Assembly (NCBI GenBank): GCA_021822495.1 | Contig: JAKAQO010000006.1 | Location: forward strand, 20,092-84,091 | Length of the DNA stretch: 64,000 bases | From: a bacterium | GTDB taxonomy: Bacteria > Elusimicrobiota > Elusimicrobia > UBA1565 > UBA9628 | Direction of reading: 5' to 3' | Shown here: positions 5,619-28,860 of the stretch, in pieces | How positions within the stretch are numbered: position 1 is the first letter of the stretch | Layout of the letters: each line of letters starts with the position of its first letter | Notes under the pieces: model-generated | Told to the model about the DNA's origin: nothing | The model's database searches: none | Seen by the model: the letters and a program-made list of their open reading frames with translations, nothing else | Position numbers and translations under genes: made by a program

Positions 5619-5885
5619 ATGGACCTTAAACTCATGTGGGGCGCTTTTATCACCTTATTTCTCGCTGAGATGGGAGACCGGACTCAATTTGCCGCTTTGG
5701 CCTTGGCGGCGTCAACCCACAAGCCCTGGTCTGTTTTCCTGGGAGCCTTGGCGGGATTAGCCTTGGCGCTTTTACTTGCGGTTATTTTCGCTGATATCGC
5801 GGGTCATTACCTTCCAGAAACTCTGCTTAAGAAAACCGCGGCCCTTCTCTGTGTTGTGATGGGCGCGTGGATGTGGTTTCACTAA
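5619..5885 (+). CDS. UPF0016/GDT1-TMEM165 family cation (Mn2+/Ca2+) transporter, single-repeat half-size form
   Basis: 88 aa with 3 predicted TM segments. It carries one copy of the family signature E-x-G-D-[KR]-[TS] (LAEMGDRTQ). Confidence 0.75.
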   Translation: MDLKLMWGAFITLFLAEMGDRTQFAALALAASTHKPWSVFLGALAGLALALLLAVIFADIAGHYLPETLLKKTAALLCVVMGAWMWFH

Positions 5886-26070: not shown

Positions 26071-27207
26071 GTGAAAAAACGACTCTTTCTAATCCTTGCT
26101 ATCGCCTTCTTGATCGCTTTCTATATCGGCGTTAATTTGGCGGAAATCTCTCCGGCTCATCTGTGGGAGATGATGGGAATTTCATTTTTCATCGTTTTTT
26201 TGTTTATCGGTTGGCAATGGAGCTACCGCTTGTCTTCTTTTTCCCAGGGCCCCTGGTCCTTGGCTCTTGCGTGGACGGCCAATATTGGTATCGGGGTTTG
26301 GGTGACCTTTCTTTTTTTTGCCGCGCTTAAAGACGCGGTTATTTTGGCGCTTCCGAGAAGATTTTTACCCCTCATTCCTTGGCCGAGCGTTATTTTAGGG
26401 ATGCTTCTCATTTCGGTTGTCTTTGCCGCCATCGGCCTTTGGCAGGCCTTGGCGGGGCCTTTCATTCGGCGCGTGTCAGTTCCCATTCAAGGTTTGCCCA
26501 AATCTTTAGAAGGGCTTAAAATTTTGCAAATTAGCGACTTGCATATCGGTCCAACCATTCGAAAACTCTATGTGGAAAAAACCGTTGAACGGGCTCTAAG
26601 TCTCAATCCTGACTTAATCGCCCTGACCGGCGATATTTTTGACGGGACTTTCGAGGTTTTGGCGCCTCACCTGGAACCCCTGCGCCGTTTAAAAGCCCCC
26701 TTGGGCCTTTTTTATGTGACGGGAAACCATGAATATTTTTGGGGCGCTCGGATGTGGACTCAAAAAGCCGTTGAATATGGTCTGACGCCTTTAAACAATG
26801 AAAATCGCGTCCTGACTTTTAAAGGCGAAAAATTTCTCATTGCGGGAATCCCTGATGAAATGAGCCGTTTTTTTGATAAGGACAATAATCCCGATTGCGC
26901 CAAGGCCGCCAAAACACAAGACGGGGAACTGTTTAAAATATTGCTGGCCCATCGCCCCGGGGTTTATGCCGAGGCCGCGGCTGCGGGGTTTCATCTTCAG
27001 TTGTCGGGCCATACGCATGGCGGCCAATTTTTTCCCTGGAGTCTCATGATTGGCTTTTTTCATCGCTTTTACCGGGGGCTCAACTGCTACAAAAATTTAT
27101 GGATTTACGTCAGCCCTGGAACCGGCTATTGGGGGCCGGCCCAGCGCTTGGCTGTTCCCGCTGAAATCACCCTTTTGACGCTAAAAGCCCAAGATTCTAA
27201 GAGCTAA
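26071..27207 (+). CDS. Membrane-anchored metallophosphoesterase (calcineurin-like)
   Basis: 378 aa. It has N-terminal TM helices and then the motifs SDLHIG, TGDIFDG, GNHEYF and SGHTHGGQ. Confidence 0.8.
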   Translation: MKKRLFLILAIAFLIAFYIGVNLAEISPAHLWEMMGISFFIVFLFIGWQWSYRLSSFSQGPWSLALAWTANIGIGVWVTFLFFAALKDAVILALPRRFLPLIPWPSVILGMLLISVVFAAIGLWQALAGPFIRRVSVPIQGLPKSLEGLKILQISDLHIGPTIRKLYVEKTVERALSLNPDLIALTGDIFDGTFEVLAPHLEPLRRLKAPLGLFYVTGNHEYFWGARMWTQKAVEYGLTPLNNENRVLTFKGEKFLIAGIPDEMSRFFDKDNNPDCAKAAKTQDGELFKILLAHRPGVYAEAAAAGFHLQLSGHTHGGQFFPWSLMIGFFHRFYRGLNCYKNLWIYVSPGTGYWGPAQRLAVPAEITLLTLKAQDSKS

Positions 27208-27473
27208 GGACTCTTGACAAAATAATATGGACATTTGGCTAAGCCGATTTTGGAGCGAAACAAGGAGAGAGGAGCGCGCATGGCTTAAGCCATGTAAGCG
27301 ACGAACGACGCGGTTGCAGCCCAAAAGCGGCTCAGCCCCTTCGGGGGAGGCCCATCTTCGGCCCATTTCTTCGTTGCTCGGCGCTTACATAACTCGTTAT
27401 GCTCGCTTCTCGCGCCTCGAATTGGGCTCGAACCTGGGCCTCCCAAATGTCCATATTATTTCGTCACGAGTCC
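27208..27473. mobile_element. 266-bp MITE-like fold-back element with 31-bp terminal inverted repeats and a TAA/TAA target-site duplication
   Basis: The left end is GGACTCTTGACAAAATAATATGGACATTTGG (27208-27238). The reverse complement of the right end (27443-27473) is GGACTCGTGACGAAATAATATGGACATTTGG, a 29/31 match. The element is flanked by TAA 27205-27207 (the stop codon of the upstream gene) and TAA 27474-27476. The interior is an imperfect palindrome with its apex at CCCC-TTCG-GGGG (27336-27347). It contains no convincing ORF. Confidence 0.55.
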
Positions 27474-27480
27474 TAAAGAC

Positions 27481-28752
27481 ATGACACAAAAAAAAGATTG
27501 CAAGGCGCTTATTATCGGCGCCGGAGCGGCGGGGCTTGCGGCGGCAGAGGCCTTAACGCGGGCGGGAAAGAGATGCGTGATTCTTGAAGCGCGAAATCGC
27601 ATTGGCGGGCGAATTTGGACTGTGAAGGGTCCGGATCAGTCTCCGATTGAATTGGGCGCGGAGTTTATCCACGGTCGTCCCCGCGTGACTTGGGATATCC
27701 TCAAGCGTTTCAGGATCAAGGCTATTCCGGTCTCGGGGGTTCGCTGGCGCAAGGGCGAAGAGGGTTTGAAACGAGATTCCAACTCTTGGGGAAGTCTTTC
27801 CAAAGTTTTCTCGCGGCTTAAATCCACGAGGAAAGACCGTTCTTTTCTCGATGCTTTGGAGAAAATGAAACTTTCTCCCGCATCCAAAGAGATGGCCGAG
27901 CGTTTTGTGAGAAGTTATCACGCCGCGGACACTCGTAAAATCAGCGTCAACGATCTCGTATTTCAACAGGAAGTATCCGGAGAATCGGGTATGCAGGGGT
28001 ACCGCATTCCGCAAGGTTACGGGTCTTTGATCAAAAATTTGGCGGCAGCCTTGCCTCCCGGTTCAATTCAGTTGAATCAAGCCGTGCGGGAAATTCGCTG
28101 GTCTCGAAATAAGGTGGAGGTTGTCACTCAAAAATCGCGCTTCAAGGCCGAGCGCGTCTTGGTGACCGTGCCGCTAGGGGTTCTAAAATATCCCGGGGCC
28201 TTTGTTTTCTATCCCGCCTTGAAAGCAAAAGAAGCGGCCTTGAAAAAACTGGAGATGGGACTGGCGGCTAGAGTTTCTTTCTTTTTTCGGGAGCCTTTCT
28301 GGCAAAAAGGGGGGAGAAAAAATCTTTCCGGCTTTTTTCAATTAGAGAAGACGGCAATTCCGGTTTGGTGGACCGGACTCTTTAAGGATTCTCCGGTCTT
28401 AACTGGTTGGCTGGGTGGGCCGGAGGTTCAAAAACTGGGGGCCCCGAAGCTTTTTACTCGCCGAGGGCTTGAGAGTTTAAGCGGTCTTTTTTATTTTGAT
28501 CAAAAATTCTTGAAATCAAAACTCCTCCGGACTTATTTTCACGACTGGAGTTCCGACCCTTTTTCCCGCGGGGCTTACAGTTACTGTGGAGTGGGTGGAA
28601 TGCCGGCTCGAAAAGAGCTTGCGCGTCCCGTTGATAAGACCTTGTTTTTTGCCGGAGAAGCAACCGATGATTCCGGTGAGGCCTCGACCGTGGCCGGCGC
28701 TTTTTCAAGCGGTCTTCGCGCCGCTGAAGAAATCATCTCATCTTTAATTTAG
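27481..28752 (+). CDS. FAD-dependent amine oxidase family protein
   Basis: 423 aa. Dinucleotide-binding motif ALIIGAGAAGLAAAEAL, then ILEARNRIGGRIWT, and a C-terminal FFAGEAT motif typical of flavin amine oxidases. Confidence 0.8.
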   Translation: MTQKKDCKALIIGAGAAGLAAAEALTRAGKRCVILEARNRIGGRIWTVKGPDQSPIELGAEFIHGRPRVTWDILKRFRIKAIPVSGVRWRKGEEGLKRDSNSWGSLSKVFSRLKSTRKDRSFLDALEKMKLSPASKEMAERFVRSYHAADTRKISVNDLVFQQEVSGESGMQGYRIPQGYGSLIKNLAAALPPGSIQLNQAVREIRWSRNKVEVVTQKSRFKAERVLVTVPLGVLKYPGAFVFYPALKAKEAALKKLEMGLAARVSFFFREPFWQKGGRKNLSGFFQLEKTAIPVWWTGLFKDSPVLTGWLGGPEVQKLGAPKLFTRRGLESLSGLFYFDQKFLKSKLLRTYFHDWSSDPFSRGAYSYCGVGGMPARKELARPVDKTLFFAGEATDDSGEASTVAGAFSSGLRAAEEIISSLI

Positions 28753-28763
28753 TATAATAGAGT

Positions 28764-28837
28764 TGCGGGGTAGAGCAGCCTGGTAGCTCGCAAGGCTCAT
28801 AACCTTGAGGTCGCTGGTTCAAATCCAGCCCCCGCAA
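28764..28837 (+). tRNA. tRNA-Met (anticodon CAU), initiator-like
   Basis: Sequence TGCGGGG-TA-GAGC-AGCCTGGT-AGCTC-G-CAAGG-CTCATAA-CCTTG-AGGTC-GCTGG-TTCAAAT-CCAGC-CCCCGCA-A. It forms a cloverleaf with A11:U24. The D-arm and T-loop match the E. coli tRNA-fMet sequence as I recall it. CCA is not encoded. Confidence 0.9.
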
Positions 28838-28860
28838 CGTCTTCAAGGGAAAGATTCGAA

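Follow-up and report, generated by a model that had tools for sequence, protein, structure and literature searches.

A probable miniature inverted-repeat transposable element at the junction of a metallophosphoesterase and an amine oxidase gene in an Elusimicrobia-type genome

Organisation of the locus

The stretch of DNA analysed here, referred to as the window, comprises 64,000 nucleotides (nt) of contig JAKAQO010000006.1 (positions 20,092 to 84,091; assembly GCA_021822495.1) from a member of the Elusimicrobiota. A segment of 266 bp at 27208–27473, bounded by terminal inverted repeats (TIRs), lies between genes for a metallophosphoesterase and a flavin amine oxidase. It is very probably a non-coding MITE (miniature inverted-repeat transposable element) at an operon junction, moved in trans by a DDE transposase of the IS5 family (IS1031/IS427-like). 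Every feature of a prokaryotic MITE that could be checked is present, save an autonomous relative. The features of the locus are as follows.

26071–27207, + strand: gene for a calcineurin-like metallophosphoesterase of 378 amino acids (aa) (Pfam Metallophos, E 3.7e-12), found at the same position in loci L030 and L032
27205–27207: left target-site duplication TAA, which doubles as the metallophosphoesterase stop codon
27208–27238, + strand: left TIR, GGACTCTTGACAAAATAATATGGACATTTGG, with a GG tip, a variable stretch of 10–12 nt and then the core
27221–27238, + strand: conserved 18-nt core within the left TIR, AATAATATGGACATTTGG, invariant in the three-lineage alignment
27237–27337: left hairpin arm, with a base helix 27237–27256/27319–27337 and an apex palindrome at 27279–27294
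27279–27294: palindrome I8, CATGGCTTAAGCCATG
27336–27347: central mini-hairpin CCCC-TTCG-GGGG, at the midpoint of the element (centre 27340.5)
27346–27443: right hairpin arm, with a base helix 27346–27369/27419–27443 and an apex at 27388–27401
27389–27400: palindrome ATAACTCGTTAT
27443–27473, − strand: right TIR, with 2 mismatches to the left TIR
27474–27476: right target-site duplication TAA
27481–28752, + strand: intact gene for a flavin amine oxidase of 423 aa (Pfam Amino_oxidase, E 2.3e-60, and NAD_binding_8)
Repeat pair I1: the TIRs (32 nt, 94% in the inverted-repeat search)
Repeat pair I2: GTAAGCG at 27294–27300 facing CGCTTAC at 27382–27388 (19 nt, 84%)
Repeat pair I3, left arm: 27237–53/27321–37
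Repeat pair I4, right arm: 27345–60/27429–44
Terminal-repeat pattern of the family: GG[GA]C-N(8-10)-AATAATATGRACA(0-2)TTTGG, inverted at the two ends, with T[AT]A outside

An initial annotation, made from the sequence alone, had described 31-nt TIRs matching at 29 positions, flanking TAA triplets of which the left one is a stop codon, two local palindromes, one on each arm, and a CCCC-TTCG-GGGG hairpin near the centre; all of these were recovered in the sequence with the same positions. A search for the TIR with up to 3 mismatches returned two sites in the window and none in 100 shuffled sequences. The TIRs are seen in every complete member of the family, and in each lineage the variable tip of one end co-varies with that of the other (7 compensatory pairs in helix 1). 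The description of the interior as an imperfect palindrome stands in part: the facing pair GTAAGCG/CGCTTAC is there, but over its whole length the interior is only 68% palindromic and is better described as two separate hairpin arms. Members of the family measure 266–273 bp, or 332–334 bp with a nested insert.

Family copies and their target-site duplications

Scanning of 185,579 species-representative genomes with a 19-mer common to both TIRs gave 16 loci. Eight of them are true family members, all in metagenome-assembled genomes (MAGs) labelled Elusimicrobia: six contigs of JACRDO01, one of JACQJN01 and one of DAHXMM01, the last a fragment. The other eight match nothing past the seed. A metagenome scan with the 19-mer core added one member, at the end of a groundwater contig (L024), its eight other loci being chance matches, and two scans of viral contigs added none. 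The window itself holds a single copy according to both the repeat search and the family hidden Markov model; no further copy was seen in the flank beyond the window start, and a BLAST search of plasmids returned nothing relevant. Over the full length, the JACRDO copies share ~80% identity with the window element; among themselves they are 95–99% identical, and several lie at contig ends. The identity of the JACQJN copy to the window element is 71%. The anticipated copies elsewhere were therefore found, dispersed, with flanks of their own and in other Elusimicrobia MAGs, together with several in the source community (see below).

Perfect 3-bp direct repeats flank four of the five complete copies, namely TAA/TAA in the window and in L007, and TTA/TTA in L009 and L014. 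With single ends counted, TAA or TTA is present at 14 of the 16 known flanks. The flanks are direct repeats, and an origin as part of the inverted repeat would put TTA opposite TAA; hence they are true target duplications. A 2-bp TA duplication of the IS630/Tc1 type was also considered and is ruled out for most copies, in which the third base matches too, though the complete copy L002 may fit it.

With respect to the genes beside them, the copies are found in either orientation. Those in the window, L007 and L014 sit exactly on a stop codon, and those in the window, L011, L014 and L002 lie 4–16 nt upstream of a start codon. Such spots are where T[A/T]A targets occur in GC-rich genomes and where insertion is tolerated.

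Orthologous loci without the element

Orthologues of the amine oxidase with 81%, 72% and 67% aa identity are found in syntenic loci, with the order AsmA-like, GTPase, pseudouridine synthase, methyltransferase, metallophosphoesterase and amine oxidase genes. At these three orthologous loci (L030/L031, L032 and L033) there is no element between the last two genes. The junction is a stop/start overlap ATGA in L030/L031, has 2 nt between the genes in L033 (TAAGTATG) and an 11-nt spacer in L032. Removal of the element and one TAA from the window yields AAGAGCTAAAGACATG, which is the tight operon junction reconstructed in the initial annotation, and the C-terminus of the metallophosphoesterase in the window is of normal length. 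Empty sites in relatives, proposed there as a check, thus exist at loci with tight or overlapping junctions. The finding named there as speaking for an RNA gene, a single-copy element retained at orthologous loci, did not emerge, as the element is multi-copy and the orthologous loci lack it. As judged by these comparisons, the most parsimonious course of events would be that the element entered the TAA stop codon in the window lineage and that the stop was restored by the duplication. Both proteins are unchanged because the target duplication regenerated the TAA.

The start codon of the amine oxidase gene lies 7 nt past the right TIR, has no Shine–Dalgarno (SD) sequence, and agrees with the start in the orthologues. 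The claim that the insertion deprived the gene of its SD sequence and promoter has to be modified. The orthologues too have no clear SD sequence at this point and depend on the upstream gene, which overlaps or adjoins; the loss would be one of translational coupling rather than of a promoter. Before the insertion, the amine oxidase gene was probably translationally coupled through the tight junction.

Taken together, the dispersed copies, target duplications and empty orthologous loci support the initial view that the segment is mobile and non-autonomous.

Copies in the source community

A contig of a mine-drainage assembly in ENA matches the window with 100% identity, and contig DAHZIB010000111 of an NCBI MAG (GCA_027401815.1) does so with 99.99% (1 mismatch in 8,234 bp). 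When contigs from four runs of the mine-drainage study were mapped onto 26900–27800, they were found to end at 27203–27207 and 27475–27476, and several different sequences continue outward from these points. Segments of the element have 2–9 times the k-mer depth of the flanks, and the TIR has ~7 times the flank depth. The left TIR has at least five distinct outer flanks, with a contig depth of 31–38 in run X1 as compared with 31.8 for the window flank. Roughly three to four copies per genome equivalent are estimated, presumably all in one genome.

A contig from an independent assembly (L028; ENA ERZ27237422 k141_41237, 5690–5730) contains the identical element and right flank joined to another left flank, again with TAA. 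This left flank, which follows an AbiEii gene preceded upstream by genes of the HicB and AAA_14/DUF4143 families, ends in ...CGCAGGC TAA and is also present in runs X1, X2 and X4. L028 reflects either another identical copy located elsewhere in the genome or sequences fused across the repeat, by chimeric assembly or by recombination.

The source and sediment metagenomes also contain variant tips and a form with one arm only. In sediment run X10, a contig matches 27244–27346 and then passes directly into the right TIR (..TCCATATTATTTTTTCACGAGCC), giving a form of ~165 nt from which the right arm is absent; the arms therefore behave as modules. Another contig, of 2,778 nt in run X1 and 283 nt in runs X2 and X4, shares 27204–27238 with the window, including a TIR with 4 mismatches, and has a unique flank. 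Its TIR is followed by the 11 nt that adjoin the right TIR of the window element on its inner side (GAGGCCCAGGT), after which the sequence diverges (GTCTAACGCTCAAAAGAGT...). This contig could represent another subfamily or the end of an autonomous element and is noted as a lead only.

Further variants among the MAG copies

In two JACRDO copies (L007:6961–7022 and L014:5333–5394), the right arm is interrupted by a nested insert of ~66 nt, which is itself a hairpin (GGGACGTCCCGAAC ... GTTCGGGAC, −28 kcal/mol). Short palindromes related to this insert adjoin the copies L009 and L010. This suggests a second repeat family in the JACRDO genome, similar to repetitive extragenic palindromic (REP) sequences, that inserts in or beside the MITE.

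The DAHXMM01 member (L011:531–580) is a 50-nt fragment corresponding to the last 50 nt of the element with 96% identity. It lies between TAA and TAG, 5 nt upstream of a start codon, and starts with GGGCTCG, the mirror of its own right tip CGAGCCC. The fragment may be a micro-derivative formed from an internal pseudo-end or a remnant of a deletion.

Fold and its conservation

Folding, which the initial annotation had recommended, showed a single strand to be far more stable than shuffled controls. The RNA fold has −130 kcal/mol on the + strand (z −7.8) and −137.6 kcal/mol on the − strand (z −9.3), and the value with DNA parameters is −72.8 (z −8.6).

A consensus fold was calculated with RNAalifold for three lineages, represented by the window, two JACRDO copies and JACQJN; the data set is modest, as it comprises no more than three independent lineages. 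The consensus consists of a 25-bp terminal stem, two arms of ~100 nt and a tiny central hairpin, 95% of cells being paired. Compensatory changes are present in 21 of the 90 consensus pairs, 14 of them outside the terminal stem, which is above all 500 shuffles and all slid controls. In the left arm, helix 2 has 5 compensatory pairs among 17; in the right arm there are 3 among the 21 pairs of helix 7 and 2 in helix 9. Between the window and a JACRDO copy, both bases have changed with the pairing kept in 6 of the 63 inner-helix pairs and with the pairing broken in none, one pair has been lost, and the divergence is 25.6% in unpaired as compared with 14.6% in paired columns. The central loop varies: the window has TTCG, the JACRDO copies have GAC and L002 has TTC.

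Self-complementarity within each arm is significant in every one of the three lineages, and strong arm-to-arm complementarity is confined to JACRDO. A single long fold-back hairpin is the less well supported model, having −82.8 as against −105.3 kcal/mol for the two-arm model and 3 as against 14 inner compensatory pairs.

The consensus of the reverse strand is of nearly the same energy (−106.2 vs −105.3 kcal/mol), with 15 G-U pairs on each strand. Both strands thus fold equally, which is evidence against a strand-specific RNA gene. The alignment suggests that the pairing is under constraint without a strand signature, and a constraint that is strand-neutral or acts at the DNA level would fit better than a strand-specific RNA gene.

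Coding, RNA and promoter searches

The longest open reading frame (27227–27484, + strand, 85 aa) starts at an ATG inside the left TIR and is open through the whole element. Its product has no match in Pfam and no homologue among 5.8 billion proteins. The equivalent frame is open in the JACRDO copies too, where the nested insert would shift it, and this reading frame is probably fortuitous.

No Rfam family matches the element at the gathering score, and the permissive threshold gave only chance-level matches (E above 1). A tRNA-like reading of GGTTCGAGCC in the right arm was rejected, as the genuine tRNA-Met at 28764–28838 is the only one reported by ARAGORN and Rfam. No sigma-70-type promoter site was detected in the element, and its single terminator-like site is within chance. 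The TTGACA hexamer of the left TIR and the UUCG loop of the central hairpin, both pointed out in the initial annotation, are not conserved in the other lineages. A promoter at the hexamer was rejected on this ground and for want of a promoter-like site, and the variable loop speaks against the long structured RNA with a UUCG-capped hairpin suggested there as an alternative.

Evidence against a MITE and alternative explanations

Several observations weigh against a MITE mobilised in trans. The window, 67 fetched loci and viral contigs yielded no autonomous element and none of the transposase genes bounded by these repeats that the initial annotation had proposed to look for, whole genomes and metagenomes having had no dedicated search. 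The empty sites come from related species (67–81% aa identity) and not from strains of the same species, and no element-free allele, as a joint across an empty site, was seen in the source metagenomes. The complete copy L002 has non-matching flanks, TTA/TAG. In three metatranscriptomes of the same study, a cross-matching tRNA was the sole match, and the organism itself is not represented. Finally, the compensatory upkeep of the two inner hairpins is not predicted by a plain MITE model.

This upkeep would be accounted for if the fold itself were the selected unit. The folded strand would then be needed for transposition, for example as a cruciform or single-stranded DNA intermediate that juxtaposes the ends, or would serve as a portable intercistronic RNA module that uncouples and differentially processes the genes of an operon, and the family would prefer the TAA stops of tight operon junctions. 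Such a role is considered unlikely.

A structured non-coding RNA gene, possibly on a mobile cassette, would have the three-way fold as its product and the repeats as its closing stem. The great stability of the fold, the compensatory pairs inside and outside the terminal stem, the absence of broken double changes from the inner helices and the lower divergence of paired columns would all suit such a gene. However, the consensus energies and G-U pairs are alike on the two strands, the copies lie in both orientations to their neighbour genes, and neither a promoter-like site, a terminator beyond chance nor an Rfam family was detected, with TTGACA and the UUCG loop lacking conservation. The element is, moreover, multi-copy, absent from orthologous loci and flanked by 3-bp duplications, and a one-armed variant exists. 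An RNA gene is therefore improbable.

Recruitment by the host is very improbable. On this explanation, the element would be a palindromic repeat between genes, comparable to BIME or to ERIC in a regulatory role, that is now immobile and is kept to insulate or process polycistronic mRNAs. The positions of the copies in the window, L007, L014, L002 and L011, at a stop codon or 4–16 nt from a start codon in co-directional gene pairs, would agree with this, as would the conserved fold and the precedents of Correia and ERIC (PMC10969869). Against it, the JACRDO copies are 95–99% identical and break the assembly, which points to recent spread, and copies of the family are found in both orientations. 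Purifying selection on T[A/T]A insertions in GC-rich genomes would leave the same pattern of positions, and the metatranscriptomes do not cover the organism.

A remnant of a hairpin-dependent single-stranded DNA transposon, either REPIN/RAYT-like or associated with palindromes of the IS200/IS605 kind, would explain a strong fold that is equal on both strands and also obtained with DNA parameters, and hairpins kept by compensation as in REPINs. Elements with Y1 transposases are not known to make a target duplication or to carry long TIRs; their hairpin ends are asymmetric, and they use a fixed tetra- or pentanucleotide target on one side only. The present element has symmetric 31-nt inverted repeats at both ends and a T[A/T]A duplicated on both sides, which makes this origin highly improbable.

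An assembly artefact, a chimeric join through the repeat of the kind that L028 may exemplify with its different left flank, is scarcely credible, since the window arrangement is 100% identical in independent assemblies and in the NCBI MAG, its gene order is that conserved in relatives, and run X9 contigs from both sides overlap in the left TIR, the right one (27222–27561) crossing the right junction.

Predicted transposition and its consequences

For the MITE, the transposase most likely belongs to the IS5 family, IS1031/IS427 type, because of the 3-bp T[A/T]A duplication. Members of the IS1031 group insert at TNA and generate a 3-bp repeat (PMC12016507), IS1237, an IS5-family element of the IS427 group, produces TTA/TAA duplications (PMC2516522), and Harbinger elements, which have 3-bp target-site duplications, cluster with IS5 (PMC12730594). 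The TNA-type duplication (14 of 16 flanks TAA/TTA) bears out only in part the assignment to an IS5/Harbinger-type group made in the initial annotation; a transposase was not found, so that the assignment draws on this duplication and the GG termini. The combination of GG tips, a variable stretch and an invariant core is, as far as its sequence can tell, what would be expected of sites bound and cleaved in trans by a DDE transposase. We infer the transposase family, the mobilisation in trans and all effects on expression from these features.

The enzyme, encoded elsewhere, would bind the subterminal core AATAATATGGACATTTGG in both TIRs and cut at the GG tips, and the element would enter a T[A/T]A trinucleotide, which would become duplicated. 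In the window, the element would have entered the metallophosphoesterase gene at its TAA stop codon, with the stop restored through the duplication. The two genes, formerly overlapping or adjacent, are now 273 nt apart (27208–27480). If the pair is co-transcribed, the mRNA would contain a very stable three-way fold (~−130 kcal/mol) with a terminal stem of 25–31 bp that ends 7 nt before the AUG. In that case, the predicted structure would probably abolish translational coupling and hinder initiation at the amine-oxidase gene. By analogy with Correia and ERIC elements (PMC10969869), the folded mRNA may also undergo cleavage of the RNase III type.

Comparison with known systems

The element is an undescribed family of a well-known kind, a MITE, in Elusimicrobia-type genomes. 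By sequence comparison, it appears unrelated to the known MITE and insertion sequence (IS) families within reach. A search of the full-text literature for Elusimicrobia together with miniature inverted-repeat returned only a general IS survey with one mention of each.

The closest likeness is to MITEs of the IS5 family (IS1031/IS427 groups; IS1237, ISLrh-type), which share the 3-bp duplication of the TNA type, here TAA/TTA (PMC12016507, PMC2516522). They likewise have TIRs starting with G, are small and without an open reading frame, and occur in multiple dispersed copies. The TIRs of the present element are 31 nt long, unlike the repeats of 17–19 nt quoted for ISLrh and IS1237, and are unrelated in sequence to their GAG.../GAAC... 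ends. Its hosts, in contrast to those of the IS5-family MITEs described, are uncultured Elusimicrobia-type MAGs in which the cognate IS was not found.

The Tourist MITEs and PIF/Harbinger elements of eukaryotes also have a 3-bp duplication of TWA (TAA/TTA), and the GG(G/C)-type termini of the present element presumably resemble theirs. They belong to another domain of life, and a second, Myb-like protein is required by Harbinger. Phylogenetically, the transposase of Harbinger is linked to the IS5 family (PMC12730594).

Correia elements of Neisseria and ERIC/IRU of enterobacteria are similar in being non-coding palindromic MITEs located beside or between genes. These are co-transcribed, and their long hairpins in transcripts can be processed by RNases, which alters the expression of neighbouring genes; in the case of Correia, the hairpins in mRNA are cleaved by RNase III (PMC10969869). 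There is no sequence similarity to either. Correia elements duplicate TA and contain promoters and an IHF site, whereas no promoter-like site is present here, and unlike the single hairpin of Correia and ERIC, the element is larger (266 bp) and is formed by a stem with two arms.

REPINs, which are REP doublets mobilised by RAYT, share the compensatory upkeep of hairpins and the strand-symmetric fold. They are much shorter and are not known to have a target duplication or long TIRs with a conserved subterminal core, both of which are found in the present element.

Possible neighbouring islands

The region following the amine oxidase gene differs among the related loci. The tRNA-Met gene (28764–28838 in the window) directly follows the amine oxidase gene in the window, L030 and L033. 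Downstream of it, L030:6278–8186 has a helix-turn-helix (HTH) gene and a HipA-type toxin module, L033:1832–2762 has an HTH gene and a gene cut by the contig end, and the window continues straight to feoA/feoB. In L032:6437–9774, no tRNA was detected, and AbiEii/AbiEi genes and a tyrosine integrase gene are present. The region looks like a variable hotspot for islands.

Just beyond position 1 of the window (L065:10950–11340), two tRNA-like genes lie in the intergenic region after a PALP gene. A second copy of the 3' end of the first one (GGAATCCCACCCTCTCCG) occurs ~140 nt downstream, followed by UDG, BrnT/BrnA and DpnI-like genes. This arrangement resembles an att-type duplication at an integrated island.

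Implications

The locus is a clean natural case in which a TAA stop codon served as the target of an insertion and was regenerated by it, so that a presumably coupled gene pair was split with both proteins left intact. The family breaks metagenome assemblies and can produce chimeric joins, as may be the case in L028, which matters for the binning of these MAGs. The only unusual feature is the compensatory upkeep of the two inner hairpins, which bears on whether the structure of MITEs is selected for transposition or for effects at the RNA level.

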